From Minisyncoccia bacterium (GTDB taxonomy: Bacteria > Patescibacteriota > Minisyncoccia > Phycocordibacterales > Phycocordibacteraceae), in assembly GCA_038212075.1 (NCBI GenBank), contig JBBQUV010000001.1, forward strand, positions 35,200 to 99,199: a stretch of DNA of 64,000 nucleotides. Direction: 5' to 3'. A program made the translations under genes and the position numbers. A model generated the notes under the pieces. The model made no database searches, had not been told where the DNA came from, and saw only the letters and a list, made by a program, of their open reading frames with translations. This document shows positions 5,911-32,915 of this stretch, one piece after another; the first letter of the stretch is position 1, and every line of letters begins with the position of its first letter.

Positions 5911-5936
5911 CAAAGTATTTCTAGCCACCAAAACAA

Positions 5937-5963
5937 AAACAGCACGTACGTGCTGTTTTTGTT
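5937..5963 (+). terminator. rho-independent terminator after tRNA-Lys
   Basis: cagcacg/cgtgctg palindrome followed by tttttgttt. Confidence 0.6.
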
Positions 5964-6039
5964 TACTATGTGACGAGGTGGCTCGGTCACGAGTTGCGGA
6001 CGGATTGCTCCAAGTATTCGCAATCCGTCTCGCACTCTC

Positions 6040-6124
6040 GACCCGGGCTCGCCGTTGCTTCGCAACAAGGCTGTGCCTTTCGAGTCTCACACGCACGACG
6101 CGCAGGCGTCGTGCTCCTCGGCAC
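6040..6124 (+). repeat. structured element with an inverted copy of the tRNA-Leu(TAA) T-arm and acceptor 3' end, plus a hairpin insertion
   Basis: CTCGCCGT, a hairpin, GCTGTGCC, TTCGAGTCTCAC (matches the T-loop/stem of the adjacent minus-strand tRNA), hairpin gcacgacgcgcaggcgtcgtgc, then TCCTCGGCA (acceptor 3' side). Same layout as the elements at 13427-13505 and 29165-29277. Confidence 0.5.
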
Positions 6125-6147
6125 ATAACTGCGCTTCGCTTGCTCTG

Positions 6148-6236
6148 TGCCGAGGGTGAGACTCGAACTCACATGAGGTGTTTAAAGACCTCTAGGGATT
6201 TTAAGTCCCCTACGTCTACCATTCCGTCACCTCGGC
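6148..6236 (-). tRNA. tRNA-Leu (anticodon TAA)
   Basis: Acceptor GCCGAGG/CCTCGGC, anticodon stem GGGGA/TCCCT with loop CTTAAAA, long variable arm, T-loop TTCGAGT. Confidence 0.8.
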
Positions 6237-13284: not shown

Positions 13285-13306
13285 CCGCCCGAAAGGGCGG
13301 TTTTGT
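13285..13306 (+). terminator. rho-independent terminator after rpmG
   Basis: ccgccc-gaaa-gggcgg followed by ttttgtg. Confidence 0.7.
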
Positions 13307-13322
13307 GTTAAAATCCCCGCAC

Positions 13323-13396
13323 GGGTCCATCGTATAATGGTAGTACAGCGGCCTCCAAATCCGCTAGCGTAGGTTCGATTCCTACTGGGCCCGCCA
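13323..13396 (+). tRNA. tRNA-Trp (anticodon CCA), with encoded 3' CCA
   Basis: Acceptor GGGTCCA/TGGGCCC, anticodon loop CTCCAAA, T-arm GTAGG-TTCGATT-CCTAC. The anticodon stem has a C-T mismatch at its base. Confidence 0.7.
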
Positions 13397-13402
13397 ATGA
13401 GA

Positions 13403-13427
13403 AACGCCGGAAGGCGTTTTCTCTTTT
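13403..13427 (+). terminator. rho-independent terminator after tRNA-Trp
   Basis: aacgcc-ggaa-ggcgtt followed by ttctctttt. Confidence 0.6.
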
Positions 13428-13505
13428 GGTGGGCCCAAGCAGGCGTGGGGCGCCTGCGTGTAGGAATCGAATGCCGGAGCGCGACGGCGCGAGGCGGGGT
13501 CGCGG
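13427..13505 (+). repeat. structured element with an inverted copy of the tRNA-Trp acceptor 3' end and T-arm, plus a hairpin
   Basis: TGGTGGGCCCA (reverse complement of the tRNA 3' end), hairpin caggcg-tgggg-cgcctg, GTAGGAATCGAA (reverse complement of the T-loop/stem), then GCCGGAGC and ACGGCGAGGCGGGG, motifs shared with the elements at 6040 and 29165. Confidence 0.5.
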
Positions 13506-13647
13506 AATTTTCTAGCAAGAAAATATCCGTGACCGCAAAGCGGAACCGTAGAATCTACAGGATTTGATAAGCGTACTCGCGGTCCTGCTGGGCTCGCCCT
13601 TGTGGGCAACCTACATCTCTTCAGATTTTGTGAGCTACAATATACAT

Positions 13648-14784
13648 ATGCGTGACTACAGGGCTCATATTTTCACACTCGCGTTTGCTGTCGTGCTCAT
13701 TATTCCATTCTTCGCCTTTGGCGCAGTGACCGATCCCGGTAGCTCCGGCTGGTCTATTGTCCCCAAGGAATGTAATTGCCCTCCGGCAAGTGATTCTGCG
13801 CAAGCGGCTGGATGGGGTTGTGTGCTCAAGGTTGTGGCAAATCTGATTCAGTTCGCAATCTATCTTAGTATTACTATTTCTGTACTAATGTTCGCCTATG
13901 CCGGCTTCCTTTGGGTGTTGAATCCCATAAATCCGGAAAATCGCGCGGCGGGAAGGAAGATATTAATGAATGCCGCCATCGGACTTCTCATTACACTTTC
14001 TGCGTGGCTTATCGTGAACACCCTTCTTATTGCACTTGGCGCTAATATTGACGGACAGGGCGGTATTGCTGGCACAACAAAACTACTTAGCGGCGGCTCT
14101 GACTGCACAAAGGGTGATCCGCTTGTAAATAATGGTGGAACGCTTGGAGGCGGTGGTGGAGACACAACAACGCCACCTGGCGGATGTCCATCTGGTCAAC
14201 AGTGTTCTGCAACCACCAAGACTTGTGAATACAAGACAACGACCACCATAACGTGTGGTGATAAAACGTGTGGAAAAAATGAAACCTGTGACGCAACAGC
14301 GAAAACGTGTACGCCTCCACAAGCCTGCACGCCACCCGCGGAAACTGGTAGTGGTGCCAATTGTCCTGCGGCGGCTCCTTCAGCAATGGTCGCGCTCCCA
14401 TCAGGAGATGTCGTTGGAGGAACTGGACTTGCTACGCCGGCAACTGTTCAAAACTACATTGCTATGCGCGCAGCAGCGCTACAAGCAGGATTTGACTTGA
14501 AAGTTTCTAGCGCTTATCGCTCAGATGCAACACAGGTTCAATTATGGAATCAATACTGTTCGTCTGGTACCTGCGGTGCCACAAAAGTGGCGAAGCCCTG
14601 CTCGCTCGGAGGAAATGGATCAAACCATAATTCTGGAGAAGCTCTTGATTTGACTGACGGATGTCATAATGGACAGAGCTGCAGTAGTCCAGCCTATAAC
14701 TGGTTGAAGACAAATGGAGGACGATGGAATTTTAGAAACGCTGTGCCCACTGACCCTGTGCACTGGTCACCGGACGGCCACTAG
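13648..14784 (+). CDS. fusion protein: TrbC/VirB2-like pilin domain, Cys/Thr/Gly-rich linker, and a peptidase M15 (VanY/D-Ala-D-Ala carboxypeptidase-like) domain
   Basis: Signal peptide; a two-TM pilin-like core with loop NPINPENRAAGRK; C-terminal M15 motifs SAYRSDATQVQLW, SNHNSGEALDL and DPVHWSPDG. The start was chosen at the signal-peptide Met (13648) rather than the ORF-track 13564. Confidence 0.65.
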   Translation: MRDYRAHIFTLAFAVVLIIPFFAFGAVTDPGSSGWSIVPKECNCPPASDSAQAAGWGCVLKVVANLIQFAIYLSITISVLMFAYAGFLWVLNPINPENRAAGRKILMNAAIGLLITLSAWLIVNTLLIALGANIDGQGGIAGTTKLLSGGSDCTKGDPLVNNGGTLGGGGGDTTTPPGGCPSGQQCSATTKTCEYKTTTTITCGDKTCGKNETCDATAKTCTPPQACTPPAETGSGANCPAAAPSAMVALPSGDVVGGTGLATPATVQNYIAMRAAALQAGFDLKVSSAYRSDATQVQLWNQYCSSGTCGATKVAKPCSLGGNGSNHNSGEALDLTDGCHNGQSCSSPAYNWLKTNGGRWNFRNAVPTDPVHWSPDGH

Positions 14785-28898: not shown

Positions 28899-28949
28899 AC
28901 CCTCACGGTCACCGCATTTTTTTGGTATGGTAGTGGAAGTGCGCTATTT

Positions 28950-29090
28950 GGGGGATCGTCTAACGGTAAGCAGAGCTTTCTGCCTGCGCTCGCTCGGAAC
29001 GGATAAGCAAAGCCTCATCCTTTCCTCGCTCGCTTGGCGGTAGGACAGCGGCCTTTGAAGCCAGTGATACGATAGAAATGTTCGATAATT
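28950..29090 (+). pseudogene. pseudo-tRNA: partial duplicate of tRNA-Gln (5' half and anticodon arm) split by a ~64-nt insertion, lacking T-arm and acceptor 3' strand
   Basis: GGGGGATCGTCTAACGGTA and GGACAGCGGCCTTTGAAGCC are identical to the downstream tRNA-Gln but are separated by an insert. The 3' portion diverges (AGTGATACGATAGAAATGTTCGATAATTT). Confidence 0.6.
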
Positions 29091-29092
29091 TT

Positions 29093-29161
29093 GGGGGATC
29101 GTCTAACGGTAGGACAGCGGCCTTTGAAGCCGTTAATTTTGGTTCGATTCCAAGTCCCCCA
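29093..29161 (+). tRNA. tRNA-Gln (anticodon TTG)
   Basis: Acceptor GGGGGAT/GTCCCCC, anticodon stem GCGGC/GCCGT with loop CTTTGAA, T-arm TTGG-TTCGATT-CCAA, discriminator A. Confidence 0.75.
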
Positions 29162-29164
29162 GCA

Positions 29165-29277
29165 AAAATGTGCGGAGCAGATTTTAGTGCGGGGAAGCGA
29201 GACGTCTGCACGTCTCGTGTCTTGGAATCGAACGCCGGAGCATGTTCCATTCAGCAGAATGGAACGGCGAGGCGGTG
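29165..29277 (+). repeat. structured element with an inverted copy of the tRNA-Gln T-arm, plus hairpins
   Basis: Hairpin cgagacgtctgcacgtctcg, CTTGGAATCGAA (reverse complement of the tRNA-Gln T-loop/stem), CGCCGGAGC, hairpin ttccattcagcagaatggaa, and ACGGCGAGGCGGTG. Shares motifs with the elements at 6040 and 13427. Confidence 0.5.
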
Positions 29278-29391
29278 CTCGACCAAAGTTTCTTATGAGC
29301 GAAGCGAATTAGAAACTTGAAGTGCTCTTGTGGTATAGACCATTACCGAGCGACGGCGAGGTAGTGAGTTGAAGGAGATAAGTGTAATCAC

Positions 29392-29409
29392 GGTCCAAGT
29401 TCCCCAGCA
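29392..29409 (+). repeat. direct repeat of the tRNA-Gln 3' terminus (att-like)
   Basis: GGTCCAAGTTCCCCAGCA compared with the tRNA 3' end ATTCCAAGTCCCCCAGCA (16/18 identical), about 230 bp downstream of the tRNA. Confidence 0.5.
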
Positions 29410-29508
29410 AATTAGGACTAAGCACGTATGAGGGTTCCATTTGCGTTGCAGCGAAGTCCTTTTTGTTCAGGTCGTTGTAATTAACGCTTTGTCAAGTTAT
29501 AGTAAGTC

Positions 29509-29691
29509 ATGTATATGGAGGAAAATCCGGACATTCTGACACTAGAGCAAGCCAGTAAGCTCCTGAATTGCCACCCAAACACGTTGAGGAATTGGGACAA
29601 TAAAGGAATCCTGAAGGCCATTCGCTTTGGTACGCGGAAGGATCGTCGGTACAGAAAAAGCGACATACTTAAGCTGCTAAAACAAAAATAA
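29509..29691 (+). CDS. excisionase/MerR-family helix-turn-helix DNA-binding protein (Xis-like)
   Basis: 60 aa; LTLEQASKLLNCHPNTLRNWDNKGILKAIRFGTRKDRRY matches the HTH_17/excisionase pattern. Confidence 0.6.
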   Translation: MYMEENPDILTLEQASKLLNCHPNTLRNWDNKGILKAIRFGTRKDRRYRKSDILKLLKQK

Positions 29692-29693
29692 TT

Positions 29694-30620
29694 ATGAAAA
29701 ACTACTATCGCATAATGCTTGGACGAAAAAGTAGCCACGCTGATGAGGCACATAAGGGCAATTTCGTTGCGGCGGGCTTCATTAAAGACAAGGACCTCAC
29801 GCGTCACCTACCTGACAATTGGCGTGATTTTAATAAAGAATTCATCCCATTATTTCTTGATCAGAATCCTGAAAAGACAAAGATATCAGCGGGTCTCGCG
29901 TGCGGAATGCTCTGGACTGTCGCTAAGGGGGTTTTGGTGGGAGACATAGTGCTCTGCCCGGATGGTAAGGGTAGTTACTACGCAGGCGAGGTTACTGGCG
30001 AGTATGAATATCATAAGGGCGAAACGTTGCCGCATCGTCGGTCGGTTCGTTGGTTCACTCGTGCCATCTCACGTGACGAAATGAGCGAACCACTCAAGAA
30101 TTCAGCAGGTTCGATTGGTACGGTCAGCAATATAACGAAATATGCGGAGGAAATTGAGGCGCTAATTTCCGGCAGTCTTCCTGCCTCAATCATTTCGACT
30201 GATGCGACCATTGAAGACCCAAGCGAATTCGCGCTTGAAAAACATTTGGAGGACTTTCTTGTTCAAAACTGGCATGGCACAGAGTTAGGTAAGCGATTCG
30301 ATATTTATGAAGAGGATGGTGAAAAGGTTGGGCAACAATACCCAAGCGATACCGGTCCCATTGATATTCTCGCTATCAGTAAAGACAAAAAAGAGATAGC
30401 TGTCATCGAGCTCAAAAAAGGTCGTGCAAGTGATGTGGTCGTGGGACAAGTTCAACGATACATGGGGTATGTGAAAGAAGAATTAGCTGAAGACAATCAG
30501 TCCGTGCGAGGCATCATCATTGCGTTCGAGAATGATGTCAAAATAAATCGTGCCCTCTCTGTTGCTCCGAACATTGAGTTCTACACCTACAAAATCCACT
30601 TTAAGCTAGAGAAAAAATAA
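29694..30620 (+). CDS. two-domain protein: N-terminal unknown domain plus a C-terminal PD-(D/E)xK nuclease-fold domain (restriction-endonuclease-like)
   Basis: C-terminal GPIDILAISKDKKEIAVIELKKG.....GQVQRYMGYV, a D...E-L-K nuclease signature with a downstream Q..Y segment. It starts 2 nt after the xis-like gene. Confidence 0.55.
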   Translation: MKNYYRIMLGRKSSHADEAHKGNFVAAGFIKDKDLTRHLPDNWRDFNKEFIPLFLDQNPEKTKISAGLACGMLWTVAKGVLVGDIVLCPDGKGSYYAGEVTGEYEYHKGETLPHRRSVRWFTRAISRDEMSEPLKNSAGSIGTVSNITKYAEEIEALISGSLPASIISTDATIEDPSEFALEKHLEDFLVQNWHGTELGKRFDIYEEDGEKVGQQYPSDTGPIDILAISKDKKEIAVIELKKGRASDVVVGQVQRYMGYVKEELAEDNQSVRGIIIAFENDVKINRALSVAPNIEFYTYKIHFKLEKK

Positions 30621-30758
30621 TTTCATGAGCAAAAGAGAAACAAATTCAAGTATGTCCAAAGAGCAGGAGCGAGCAGAGGATTGATGTGGTTGAATTAAAC
30701 AAGTTTGCAAAGCTATATAAAAAAGAATTAAAACATTTTATAAATTAACTTTAATATT

Positions 30759-31376
30759 ATGGATTCAAAAGAAACAAAAAATATATGGATAGTGGTCGTT
30801 GTTATTGCATTGATAGCGGGTGCATATTATTTTGGCACAGCATCAAAAAATCAAACTGGAGTTACAGATAATACACAAGATACTAATACGCTTACACCCA
30901 CCCAAGAAACTGCCACGCAACAAAATCAGGTTGCTCCAGTTGTTACCATTAAACCAAAAGTTACTGTCCCACAGAATACATACACTAACTTCGAGTTGTC
31001 AGAAAATCCAAAATATTTATTTAGCAAAGATTTTAACCCAAATAAAGCAAAGGTCTTTGGAGTTGGTATAGGTGACTTAAGAAGTAATATTACTTCTATA
31101 GTACCTCAACAAGAATACGGAAGCTGGGTAAGAACAACAAATTCAACTGCATATCGTATAGTAAATGGCATAGTGGTGGAAATAGCGCTTAATAATGATG
31201 GCATAGCTAATCTTTTTAGGACAGATGAAATTATTATAAAATTCGGTCAATCAGACCAAACTAAAACAACCGGTAACCCTCCATACACTACGACCACCTA
31301 TTACTACGTAAACAGAGGCTTGGTTGTTTATGATTATGGATCATCGGGTATAAAAGTAAATATTATTGGCAACTAA
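30759..31376 (+). CDS. hypothetical membrane-anchored/secreted protein (AT-rich gene)
   Basis: 205 aa, N-terminal TM helix, Thr/Gln-rich linker. Noticeably lower GC than the flanking DNA. Confidence 0.45.
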   Translation: MDSKETKNIWIVVVVIALIAGAYYFGTASKNQTGVTDNTQDTNTLTPTQETATQQNQVAPVVTIKPKVTVPQNTYTNFELSENPKYLFSKDFNPNKAKVFGVGIGDLRSNITSIVPQQEYGSWVRTTNSTAYRIVNGIVVEIALNNDGIANLFRTDEIIIKFGQSDQTKTTGNPPYTTTTYYYVNRGLVVYDYGSSGIKVNIIGN

Positions 31377-31381
31377 AATGT

Positions 31382-32287
31382 TTGAACAGAGCTGAGTTTT
31401 TTATGTCTATACCAGAAAACTTTTTTAAAGATTCGAACGGAATAATCAAGTGGCACCAAGAACACCACCCGAAATCTTACGAAAGCTATTTTCTGATAAA
31501 AGAGAAAGTTAAAAATTCCAAATTTTCTGGCTCGGCTGGACTTCTGCGAAATTTAGAAGGAAATAAAACTGTCACAGGATTTCTGTCTTTTTTGACTGAA
31601 ATAAATCTTGCCAATTTGTTTTTGGATAAGAAGGTTAAAGATTTGTCTTATGAACCGAAACATATGTCTGGTGTTGATTTCTCTTTTAATGACATCGCGA
31701 TATCTGTTAAGAATCTCCACCCAAAAAATTACGAAAAGAGCGAACAACAAGTAATAGATGCATTTCGTACGGCAGGAGGCGGTAAAACGAGTTTGACTCA
31801 TAAAAACTTCTCCAGTATTGCTATTGAAGTTAAAAAAACTGAAATGGGTACTTATGGCTGGGAGAGGTTAGAAACTGGACACAGCGGATTTCTCGATAGT
31901 GATTTATACGAAATGTCTGCTCCATTAAATTACATTGGAAAATTTGAACAGTCAGATATAAAAAATAACAAAAGGGTCTTATTTTTCTTTATTCAATCAA
32001 GTGATTTTGCACAGTATTATATTCAAGATATCGTAATTTGGTATTTTGGATATCCTGTTGAAAAGTATCAACCAATTTTTCAGAACGATATGAATTGGTA
32101 TAACAAGCTTCTAAAAACACCTCCTAAGAAAAATAATATTGATGCAATCGTATTTATGTATGCACCCAATACCTTATTGAGCTGGCCACTTGGCTGTTTG
32201 GGTGATGTATCAGATAAGGCGGCACGATTACAGATTTATGCGAAGGAAAAATCTTTTTCCGAACAGATAAAATTAATTTTATCTTAA
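31382..32287 (+). CDS. hypothetical protein (AT-rich gene)
   Basis: 301 aa, Lys/Asn-rich, no recognised motif; lies 6 nt after the previous gene, so likely an operon. Confidence 0.45.
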   Translation: MNRAEFFMSIPENFFKDSNGIIKWHQEHHPKSYESYFLIKEKVKNSKFSGSAGLLRNLEGNKTVTGFLSFLTEINLANLFLDKKVKDLSYEPKHMSGVDFSFNDIAISVKNLHPKNYEKSEQQVIDAFRTAGGGKTSLTHKNFSSIAIEVKKTEMGTYGWERLETGHSGFLDSDLYEMSAPLNYIGKFEQSDIKNNKRVLFFFIQSSDFAQYYIQDIVIWYFGYPVEKYQPIFQNDMNWYNKLLKTPPKKNNIDAIVFMYAPNTLLSWPLGCLGDVSDKAARLQIYAKEKSFSEQIKLILS

Positions 32288-32483
32288 GGGAGCAATCCTC
32301 GCTGTTTTATAATATTTCCTAAAAACGGCGGGGATTTGTGCGCGAACGGGAGGGTGGCTCAAGCGCATTTGCATTTGAGCCTCGGACATTTTCGCTAGGG
32401 CGTCCTGACTCACGGATGAGCGCCGCCGTTATCTTGCAATACAGAAATTCGAAGCGGAAGCGACACCACATACAGTCGATATG

Positions 32484-32915
32484 AAAACGAGAAAGGGGGT
32501 TGGCTGAGCCGGTTGGTCGAGCCCTGCCGAGACGAGGCGAAGCTGGGGGAAGGATTCCTTCCCCCAAACAGTCTCCTGCCCTCGCACCGCTCCGCAGAGC
32601 GATAATACGCTGGGGTATGCGAAACGTCTTTTCAAAGAGGGGCGCCTGTCGGAGCAAGGCATTCACTTTTATAAGTTAGGCAGTGCAAAACCCACTCACG
32701 ATTACGGCATCCCTAAGAATCCTTCGATGCCAGTTGAGCTGAGTGAAATGCTCAAAAAGGACTCGAAGGCGAAAAAATTCTTTGAAGCATTTTCGCCCTC
32801 AAACAAAAAATCTATCTATCGCTGGATACTCAAAGGGAAACTTGAAGCAACAAGACAAAAGCGTGTTATGCACGTAGTTACTAAGGCGCGAGAAGGCAGT
32901 CGGGACGTAATTTAA
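32484..32915 (+). pseudogene. YdeI/OmpD-associated (DUF1801-like) family fragment; N-terminally truncated, with only the last 62 codons ATG-initiated (32727..32915)
   Basis: The C-terminal segment KAKKFFEAFSPSNKKSIYRWILKGKLEATRQKRV matches the YdeI C-terminal pattern. The frame stays open upstream to 32484 without a start codon. Confidence 0.4.

Follow-up and report, generated by a model that had tools for sequence, protein, structure and literature searches.

A covariation-supported family of structured non-coding elements, carrying a segment antisense to the neighbouring tRNA, at tRNA gene 3′ ends in Patescibacteria

The window, which is the whole 64,000-nucleotide stretch of DNA that was analysed, contains a tRNA-Gln gene followed directly on its 3′ side by a folded non-coding element of about 220 nt, which ends at around position 29409. 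The element, called instance 2 here, copies the stretch of tRNA-Gln from the T-loop to the 3′ end in both orientations. The gene and the parts of the element are as follows.

29092-29163, plus strand: tRNA-Gln (UUG), called by ARAGORN (29092-29162 and 60.9 bits with Rfam)
29164-29186, plus strand: spacer AAAAATGTGCGGAGCAGATTTTA, with an A run, a GCGGAGC mini-hairpin and a T run
29187-29197, plus strand: anti-acceptor segment GTGCGGGGAAG, the 5′ strand of the closing helix P1, pairing with 29399-29409
29198-29217, plus strand: hairpin P1a CGAGACGTCTGCACGTCTCG, which splits the antisense segment exactly at the acceptor/T-stem junction
29221-29232, plus strand: motif CTTGGAATCGAA, placed by exact string search
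29221-29233, plus strand: anti-T-stem and anti-T-loop CTTGGAATCGAAC, the exact reverse complement of tRNA-Gln positions 53-65
29233-29241, plus strand: motif CGCCGGAGC, placed by exact string search
29233-29277, plus strand: conserved core domain P3/P3a, made of CGCC-GGA-GC, a variable hairpin and then GGCGAGGCGGTG, with a GGA/GA internal loop
29245-29264, plus strand: variable hairpin TTCCATTCAGCAGAATGGAA of P3/P3a, placed by exact string search
29264-29277, plus strand: motif ACGGCGAGGCGGTG, placed by exact string search
29278-29376, plus strand: 3′ core domain (P4/P5 region) with several hairpins, from the MFE fold and a partial fit to covariance model R1
29377-29393, plus strand: small 3′ hairpin module GATAAGTGTAATCACGG, from sequence and fold
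29394-29409, plus strand: direct copy of the tRNA-Gln 3′ end TCCAAGTTCCCCAGCA, identical at 15 of 16 positions, the 3′ strand of P1

The anti-acceptor segment is antisense to the 3′ strand of the tRNA-Gln acceptor stem, its discriminator base and a genomic 'CA', and the 13-nt antisense of the T arm is exact (in shuffled downstream sequence the longest match averaged 5.8 nt and never exceeded 11 nt). In the predicted fold, the direct copy pairs back with both antisense pieces, and the region 29164-29420 folds at −95.4 kcal/mol (z = −4.99), a stability that none of 200 shuffles reached. By subtype the element is L-like with extra 3′ hairpins, its 3′ core domain being longer than the type L consensus. 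The small 3′ hairpin module is common to elements with unrelated cores (L161, L179, L028 and instance 1 of the window), and the spacer is kept in orthologous loci (AAAAAAGTGCGAAGCAGTTTTT in L147 and AAAAGTGCGCAGCAATTTT in L150). By eye, the trailer that follows the direct copy resembles the trailers found directly 3′ of the same tRNA-Gln in several element-free loci. A 5′ fragment of tRNA-Gln lies upstream of the window's tRNA-Gln and a low-GC island lies downstream; no far-end repeat of the tRNA-Gln end bounding this island was found in the window.

An earlier note on this DNA had described an inverted tRNA mimic at 29165-29277, an observation that is real but incomplete. The five motifs that it listed are all in place within 29198-29277 (exact string search), and the antisense copy of the T arm is borne out by the exact 13-nt match. 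Its interval takes in the 5′ half of the element, but the fold runs on to about 29409 and ends in the small hairpin and the direct copy. The element was also said to begin 4 nt after the tRNA, whereas position 29165 lies 2-3 nt after it and the first listed feature 35 nt after it. The description lacked the anti-acceptor segment and the 3′ direct copy. The word 'mimic' is apt in a structural sense: the P1 helix reproduces the acceptor/T-stem stack, and in most members of the family a hairpin occupies the place where the tRNA body would be.

Two instances had been counted in the window, one each after tRNA-Trp and tRNA-Gln. Both are real, but a third is present after tRNA-Leu(UAA).

13323-13396, plus strand: tRNA-Trp, the gene 5′ of instance 1
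13401-13420, plus strand: intrinsic terminator between tRNA-Trp and instance 1
13427-13598, plus strand: instance 1, after tRNA-Trp, with anti-acceptor segment TGGTGGGCCCA, P1a, GTAGGAATCGAA, an S-type core and the direct copy TCCTGCTGGGCTCGCC (13583-13598)
6147-6236, minus strand: tRNA-Leu(UAA), the gene 5′ of instance 3
5969-6146, minus strand: instance 3, after tRNA-Leu(UAA), with a GCGAAGC spacer, anti-acceptor segment GTGCCGAGG, P1a, GTGAGACTCGAA, an S-like core and the diverged copy CGAGCCACCTCGTCACA
about 5930-5958, minus strand: hairpin and T run after the 3′ copy of instance 3, from the sequence

The layout that the tRNA-Trp and tRNA-Gln elements were said to share is confirmed by an 18-mer, GGAATCGAAYGCCGGAGC, that occurs exactly twice in the window (0.11 occurrences expected). 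Their kinship is upheld by covariance model R1, which was built from 11 L-type members, none of them from the window, and which scores both elements (61.4 and 34.4 bits). The same model scores instance 3 at 33.7 bits (E = 4.5e-7), and this element has a fold with z = −5.3 and an exact 12-nt antisense match. An exact antisense T arm of 12-13 nt is therefore present at +57 to +64 after three of the window's seven tRNAs, and none was found after the other four. Instances 1 and 2 belong to different subtypes and are only 69% identical, which indicates no recent movement in the window genome. No promoter-like site was called between tRNA and element for instances 1 and 2, and no terminator-like site was called in the 29164-29186 spacer. 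The intrinsic terminator between tRNA-Trp and instance 1 makes the transcription of that instance uncertain.

We searched for related loci with the shared motif relaxed to GGANTCGAANGCCGGAGC, an exact 16-base pattern that biases the set toward conserved members. The pattern matches more than 120 genome loci at the least, overwhelmingly in Patescibacteria and with some in Elusimicrobia; among the matches listed, the Patescibacteria include Saccharibacteria, Paceibacterota, Parcubacteria and others. The names of the window's own protein relatives point to a Paceibacterota/Minisyncoccota-like organism as its source. We retained the 80 matches, among those listed, that also carry a downstream GCGAGGCGG-type signature, and 58 of these 80 have a tRNA on the same strand 19-150 nt upstream. 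Seventeen amino-acid specificities are represented when four copies located 165-286 nt downstream of a tRNA are counted. The earlier proposal of a recurrent element linked to tRNA genes thus holds well beyond the window. Among the retained matches, elements at tRNA-Trp occur in seven lineages, and miaA lies within about 3 kb in four of these, at one tRNA-Leu locus and at one locus with no detected tRNA.

Read on the tRNA strand, the members share one order: a spacer (often containing a terminator-like hairpin), the anti-acceptor segment, an optional P1a, the anti-T segment, P3, further hairpins and the direct copy. The antisense segment spans T-loop position 54 to the tRNA 3′ end and is usually split by P1a, while the direct copy spans T-loop position 56/57 to the tRNA 3′ end and sometimes reaches into the trailer. 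These two segments pair and close the fold, and the resulting helix reproduces the acceptor/T-stem stack. The family consensus of the anti-T-stem and anti-T-loop is GGAWUCGAA, and P3 consists of (C)GCC/GGC(G) with a GGA/GA internal loop and a variable hairpin. Subtype S is marked by GGCGGGGUCGCG ... GUGACC and subtype L by GGCGGUGCCCAGCCCGAG ... GAGAGGCGAGGGAG. From reading the sequences, a hairpin and T run directly follow the 3′ copy in several loci.

With the L-type model, 91 copies from 89 sources score E < 0.001, among them second copies in many of the 8-kb loci. In the alignment of these copies, which was fitted to the model and whose pairing figures are therefore somewhat inflated, 93.9% of cells are paired (66.8% when shuffled and 34-43% when the partner is slid) and all 42 of 42 pairs show compensatory changes. 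Independently, RNAalifold applied to a MAFFT alignment of the seed members found compensatory changes in 25 of 42 pairs. The sequence of P1a (helix 1) is variable, and yet all of its 9 pairs show compensatory changes and 97.3% of its cells are paired. Covariation strongly supports the predicted secondary structure. The 91-copy alignment contains 133 G-U or U-G pairs, compared to 42 A-C or C-A pairs, and this excess indicates that the tRNA-sense strand is the folded one. A kissing interaction between the loops of P1a (CUGC) and P3a (AGCA) was rejected, as the observed complementarity (1.77) did not exceed that of permuted pairings (1.82).

The elements are matched to the tRNA beside which they lie. 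In 57 of 58 loci, the single variable base of GGANTCGAA is the complement of T-loop position 59 in the tRNA next to it, with all four pair types represented. The last 12 nt of the tRNA recur at the 3′ end of the element with a mean of 10.7 identical positions out of 12 (7.75 for shuffled queries), and tRNA positions 63-73 are identical in the downstream copy in 35 of the 58 loci. Over these 11 positions, the 3′ copy is closer to the tRNA (9.9/11) than the antisense segment is (7.9/11, counting Watson-Crick pairs only). Duplex energies favour a better conserved antisense segment in 28 of 29 comparisons, but this preference is driven by the T-loop part and we rejected it. In L147 and in window instance 3, the antisense segment is a perfect match to the functional tRNA and it is the 3′ copy that deviates; the 3′ copy of L147 is of another tRNA-Gln type. 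Chance is ruled out as the source of these matches by the exact-match controls and the family statistics.

Two readings of the antisense segment were also rejected. It is not a copy of the tRNA's own 5′ strands, as at G-U pairs (tRNA-Trp and the tRNA-Ala of L101) it is the Watson-Crick complement of the 3′ strand. In L101, as read from the sequence, the mimic has an A-U pair in place of the G3-U70 identity pair of tRNA-Ala. Nor is it the primer-binding site of a retroelement: where CCA is not encoded (the window tRNA-Gln and L147, two loci only), the antisense segment follows the genomic 'GCA' and trailer and not GCCA with its added CCA.

Viewed from the tRNA gene, the elements look insertional. 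The left edge of the direct repeat is fixed at C56/G57, the right edge lies 0-39 nt past the tRNA end, and the length varies from 12 to 57 nt (57 in L022, 55 in L080, 39 in L043, 32 in L107 and 31 in L085), and it sometimes takes in a terminator. The inserts between the repeats are 132-326 nt long and have no ORF. Of the orthologous Dus-DnaX-M10-tRNA-Gln loci, those of the window and of L147 are filled and L148 is empty. The orthologous element of L147 stands beside a different type of tRNA-Gln, and in L150 the 5′ module of the window element is combined with another core. Filled L258 and empty L235 are 86% identical over 73 nt of downstream flank. In metagenomes, about 7 of 103 informative loci with an identical tRNA-Gln 3′ end contain an antisense element, with at least two core types unlike that of the window, and many other tRNA-Gln loci contain tandem 3′ fragments of tRNA-Gln variants.

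The elements also form arrays and differ in their cores. Tandem copies are found in L045, L105, L020 and L064, and copies with a different core or without a 3′ copy in L150 and L007. The core types found at one tRNA differ by lineage (L and S at tRNA-Trp; L, T and X at tRNA-Gln). In one MAG, the cores at tRNA-Asn (L015) and tRNA-Cys (L045), two tRNAs with identical T arms, resemble each other closely along most of their length. L022 has a perfect repeat of 57 nt, but the match of its antisense segment is limited to the T-loop plus 5 nt, possibly the pattern expected of an off-target jump. A whole-tRNA mobile cassette that splits the resident gene was rejected, as an upstream 5′ fragment occurs only at the window tRNA-Gln and possibly at L002 out of 45 loci.

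No protein family accompanies the elements consistently. An all-against-all BLAST and a Pfam census of 145 flanking ORFs found no conserved neighbour. Apart from two LAGLIDADG hits, the 25 most frequent Pfam families of these ORFs are those of housekeeping genes, and none is a recombinase, transposase or reverse-transcriptase family. One locus contains a lone serine-recombinase-like ORF, noticed by eye. Searched with all 4227 families of Rfam 15, including tRNA, tmRNA, T-box, group I and II introns and self-cleaving ribozymes, only tRNA reached its gathering score, and at E up to 10 no family matched the element itself (28900-29500 and 13300-13660). A full-text literature search found no description, which is not proof that the family has never been described. 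The family is absent from Rfam 15, and the nearest known systems, compared below, do not fit it as a family.

The ends of IS200/IS605 elements and their palindrome-associated derivatives are likewise small, hairpin-rich and placed in one orientation beside a sequence read by a guide; the element's right end resembles the target, and non-coding derivatives are mobilised in trans. Internal guides of IS200/IS605 elements read two equivalent cleavage sites, one in the left flank and one at the element's right end. The layout here is analogous, being orientation-specific with a target-like right end and a target that would be read by a putative guide of about 20 nt. However, IS200/IS605 guides comprise 4-5 nt on a fixed motif, whereas the antisense segment here covers the whole tRNA 3′ segment and is locus-specific. 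In addition, the fold here seems RNA-like, and neither TnpA (Y1 HUH) nor TnpB is linked among the 25 most frequent flanking Pfam families.

The bridge (seek) RNAs of IS110/IS1111 are also structured, element-encoded RNAs with reprogrammable target-matching segments beside conserved scaffold helices. Unlike the present elements, they adjoin a DEDD/serine recombinase gene and carry target and donor guides in internal loops. Here no such gene is adjacent among the 25 most frequent flanking Pfam families, and a single antisense segment lies in the closing helix, paired in cis with the target copy; we therefore rejected a bridge RNA. Integron attC sites and the attP hairpin of CTX phage (recombined by XerCD) share with the family a folded, imperfect inverted repeat that mimics a duplex target, an exchange point at the hairpin base and cassette-like arrays, but the present elements have no linked integron integrase or Xer among the 25 most frequent flanking Pfam families, lie at a T-loop target and contain a conserved structured core in each unit.

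The integrative elements that use tRNA genes as attB sites (phages, ICEs and their cis-mobilisable remnants) resemble the family in their tRNA 3′-end direct repeat, which flanks the present elements as well, in the intact tRNA and in tandem accretion. The differences are the size of about 100-250 nt, the lack of an integrase, the antisense copy of the site and the 17 specificities served with one conserved core. With inserts that have no ORF and no recombinase among the 25 most frequent flanking Pfam families, an integrase-type integrative element was rejected. A MITE-type transposon was rejected as well, as the terminal inverted repeats change with the neighbouring tRNA and the repeat length is variable.

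Tests against known tRNA-related RNAs gave a similar outcome. Dicistronic tRNA-ncRNA genes and tRNA-like structures are alike in placing an ncRNA directly 3′ of a tRNA without a promoter of its own, and the closing helix here resembles the minihelix recognised by RNase P, RNase Z and the CCA-adding enzyme. Plant tRNA-snoRNA genes, as cited in PMC12045711, are an example of the dicistronic arrangement. Unlike these, the closing helix here is copied in sequence from the neighbouring tRNA and there is no T-loop. We rejected tmRNA, of which ARAGORN calls none in the window, as the element has no T arm and the three copies per 64 kb each match a different tRNA. We also rejected a T-box riboswitch: it gave no Rfam hit, the complementarity is to the T arm and acceptor strand instead of the anticodon, the genes nearby have no relation to each other, and several loci have the hairpin and T run right behind the 3′ copy.

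Presence and absence at orthologous loci, the arrays, unrelated cores with common end modules, the edges of the repeats and the absence of a linked protein point to a non-autonomous insertion that targets tRNA genes. Our tentatively preferred reading is that the family may be a non-coding, non-autonomous insertion element specific to tRNA gene 3′ ends in Patescibacteria; its mobility we infer only from the comparative patterns. Most likely, the antisense segment serves as the guide through which the target is matched. It would pair with the tRNA gene from the T-loop to the 3′ end, the near-universal T-loop would provide a common seed for the pairing, and insertion would leave the paired stretch on both sides of the element, so that the tRNA gene stays intact. 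Having no promoter of its own, the element would most likely be transcribed on the tRNA strand by read-through from the tRNA promoter. Mobilisation would be supplied in trans by a putative enzyme, and the active form may be either RNA or a folded single-stranded DNA.

No known mechanism explains how antisense segments that fit each of 17 tRNA specificities would arise. At one and the same tRNA-Gln, several unrelated cores carry a matching segment, and the antisense part could therefore be made from the target during insertion instead of being a pre-existing guide. That the antisense copy generally arises by fold-back synthesis was rejected, as neither L022 nor L080 carries a mirrored trailer 3′ of the repeat. 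The perfect antisense segments and differing 3′ copies of L147 and instance 3 mean that the insertion model would need an extra recombination step.

By analogy with the systems compared above, we would class the family as site-specific, putatively guide-bearing mobile elements; to its being categorically new we give a limited but real chance. Such a new class would comprise mobile elements free of protein genes, whose transcript or folded strand reads any tRNA end by means of a reprogrammable antisense segment of about 20 nt. The transcript or strand would then direct, or even catalyse, insertion at T-loop position 55/56 and duplicate the paired stretch. The result would be a nucleic-acid-guided system that targets tRNA genes and differs from CRISPR-associated transposons, IS110 bridge RNAs and group II introns. 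If the insertion reading is true, a tiny non-coding element present in many copies in very small genomes finds tRNA genes by base pairing and inserts there while leaving them whole, which would be a new mode of target recognition among guide-using mobile elements. It would also explain part of the heavy rearrangement around tRNA genes in Patescibacteria and provide a compact, naturally reprogrammable targeting module.

We assign a limited chance to a host-selected ncRNA of tRNA biology, co-transcribed with the tRNA and using either the antisense segment or the tRNA-like closing helix. Its job could be to control 3′ processing, to offer RNase P, RNase Z or the CCA-adding enzyme a substrate or decoy, or to sequester the 3′ half of the tRNA. 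Strong structural conservation with covariation, the constant co-orientation with the tRNA without an own promoter, and persistence of the family in streamlined genomes all speak for such an RNA, as do the antisense segments that still match the functional tRNA where the 3′ copy has diverged (L147 and instance 3) and the presence at tRNA-Trp in seven lineages, with miaA nearby in four. The closing helix with a hairpin in place of the tRNA body fits as well, but in L101 the replacement of G3-U70 by A-U shows that this helix is not a faithful copy of an acceptor stem. Furthermore, the elements are sporadic (3 of 7 window tRNAs and about 7% of identical tRNA-Gln ends), the orthologous locus L148 is empty, and the same tRNA holds different core types in different lineages. 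The tandem arrays, the copies with another core or no 3′ copy (L150 and L007) and the repeats that reach into non-functional trailers also count against a host function. Consequently, given the sporadic distribution and the turnover of cores, a host role in tRNA processing fits poorly. If it were nevertheless true, the elements would be an abundant, undescribed class of tRNA-linked RNA in a major bacterial radiation; under either reading, a covariation-backed family outside Rfam 15 is ready for description and modelling.

A smaller chance, which we call doubtful, goes to folded single-stranded DNA as the active form, by analogy with hairpin-recombining systems: the hairpin made of tRNA end, spacer and antisense segment would mimic the tRNA gene as a duplex and would be recombined at its base by a trans-acting enzyme. 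These three parts do make up a single long palindrome that is nearly perfect, with runs mirrored across some spacers (an A run by a T run in L147, and ACAAAAT by ATTTTGT in L101 and L020). The base of the hairpin is also where the repeat has its edge, and units are arranged in cassette-like arrays. The spacers contain GCGNAGC, with N varying among orthologues, and GCGNAGC folds as DNA into a very stable mini-hairpin. In instance 2 and L147, it is the genomic trailer ('GCA') and not the mature CCA that the antisense segment follows, and the order of tRNA end, element and tRNA-end copy matches the cleavage-site layout of IS200/IS605. However, the preference for G-U/U-G over A-C/C-A pairs (133 vs 42) argues against folded DNA, and tandem G-A internal loops with long compensated core helices are more typical of functional RNA. 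The 25 most frequent flanking Pfam families also include no linked Y1 transposase, integron integrase or Xer gene, and the known guides of this kind span 4-5 nt instead of about 20.

Two remaining readings are unlikely. To the first we give little credence: the elements would be scars of recombination, left by integrase islands or by the replacement of tRNAs by homing-endonuclease cassettes, and the direct copy would be a tRNA 3′ fragment that became displaced, everything else coming from an attachment region that decayed. Such events are suggested by the tRNA-Gln loci that are full of tandem 3′ fragments of tRNA-Gln variants, by the upstream 5′ fragment and downstream low-GC island of the window, and by the 3′ copy of L147 that derives from a different tRNA-Gln type. 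A family of HTH and LAGLIDADG-like ORFs also adjoins the tRNA 5′ end in 11 loci and lies between tRNA and element in L019. Yet scars would not keep about 40 compensated pairs across 91 copies, or the 18-mer across phyla, and would not carry, in 57 of 58 cases, an antisense segment that fits the tRNA beside it; no integrase is linked among the 25 most frequent flanking Pfam families, and the window's island is not bounded by a far-end tRNA-Gln repeat.

The second reading, which we consider highly improbable, is a self-spliced or protein-spliced T-loop intron, in which positions 1-55 would be joined to the downstream 3′ copy to give the mature tRNA: T-loop introns are known in archaea, and the repeat edge at T-loop position 55/56 and the highly structured intervening RNA would suit one, but a complete tRNA lies upstream in every case, the downstream copies of L147 and instance 3 would mismatch the acceptor stem, terminators often separate both copies, no Rfam group I or group II intron matches at E up to 10, and the splice site would lie inside a continuous helix instead of a bulge-helix-bulge.

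The search pattern also gave 26 matches in viral contigs, which lack the downstream GCGAGGCGG-type signature save for the near-identical L133 and L142; these two have no tRNA upstream, and we took them as chance matches and rejected their membership. Most of the other viral-contig matches share one common conserved stretch that reads like a gene.

The 5′ module of the element family (anti-acceptor, hairpin and anti-T arm) is also found on elements with quite different cores, namely types T and X, and the 3′ hairpin is often common to them as well. Among loci retrieved from other genomes and metagenomes, type T cores occur at L150, L007, L020, L161, L164, L179 and L194, and type X cores at L105, L218, L229 and L258. 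The differing cores include one that starts with GAAGACCTTGCGAGTATAT and another that starts with GAACGAGAAGAGGGGGTCGG. Judging from these common ends joined to differing cores, the end modules and cores of the elements seem to recombine.

The window also holds a third copy of the family, following tRNA-Leu(UAA):
5969-6146, minus strand, third element-family copy, 3′ of tRNA-Leu(UAA)
Its antisense part matches tRNA-Leu(UAA) perfectly over 9 + 12 nt, whereas its 3′ direct copy has diverged. Short motifs, GCGNAGC mini-hairpins and GAACGAAGTGA, recur in the spacers of this copy and of the tRNA-Gln element, in those of L147 and L150, and in those of L006, L034, L090, L096, L097 and L107; the N of the mini-hairpin differs among orthologues.

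At many metagenome loci (L157, L164, L184, L217, L229, L236, L239, L250, L254 and others), the intact tRNA-Gln is directly followed by at least one variant tRNA-Gln 3′ fragment in tandem. The tandem fragments suggest repeated gene replacement or integration at the site 3′ of tRNA-Gln. A fragment of the opposite end is present in the window:
28941-29060, plus strand, tRNA-Gln 5′ fragment (positions 1 to ~44)
Its D-loop is split by a ~70-nt insert with GGTA at each edge, and comparable tRNA-Gln copies with a likewise interrupted D-loop are found at L175 and L261. The intact gene begins 29 nt downstream of the window's fragment.

Directly 3′ of the tRNA-Gln element, the GC content falls to 0.34-0.40, compared to ~0.49, and a non-coding stretch lies beyond:
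~29500-32300, plus strand, low-GC stretch
29509-29691, plus strand, HTH_17/excisionase-like protein
29694-30620, plus strand, NucS/PDDEXK-like nuclease
32300-32680, non-coding stretch of ~380 nt, GC-rich by reading
Two further ORFs of the low-GC stretch had no significant family match, and the stretch is not bounded by a second copy of the tRNA-Gln end. Within 32300-32680, no long ORF was found, and Rfam, searched with E values up to 1, gave a single match, to a miRNA model at chance level (E = 0.89).

An ORF family of ~200-230 aa combines an N-terminal HTH with a LAGLIDADG-like motif (e.g. LYWAEGSK). At 11 loci (L007, L046, L096, L149, L161, L163, L190, L194, L214, L239 and L263), a gap of 2-64 nt separates the end of the ORF from the tRNA gene that follows on the same strand; at L019, the ORF sits between tRNA-Glu and the element. 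The family may represent homing endonucleases that cause tRNA genes to be replaced.

A distinct conserved non-coding sequence follows tRNA-Gln at L178, L191, L201, L246 and L249. It includes CGGAGC-hairpin-GCGA and GCGAGGCGGGGGTTCGAGCC, and therefore has short motifs in common with the family core, but not the family layout.
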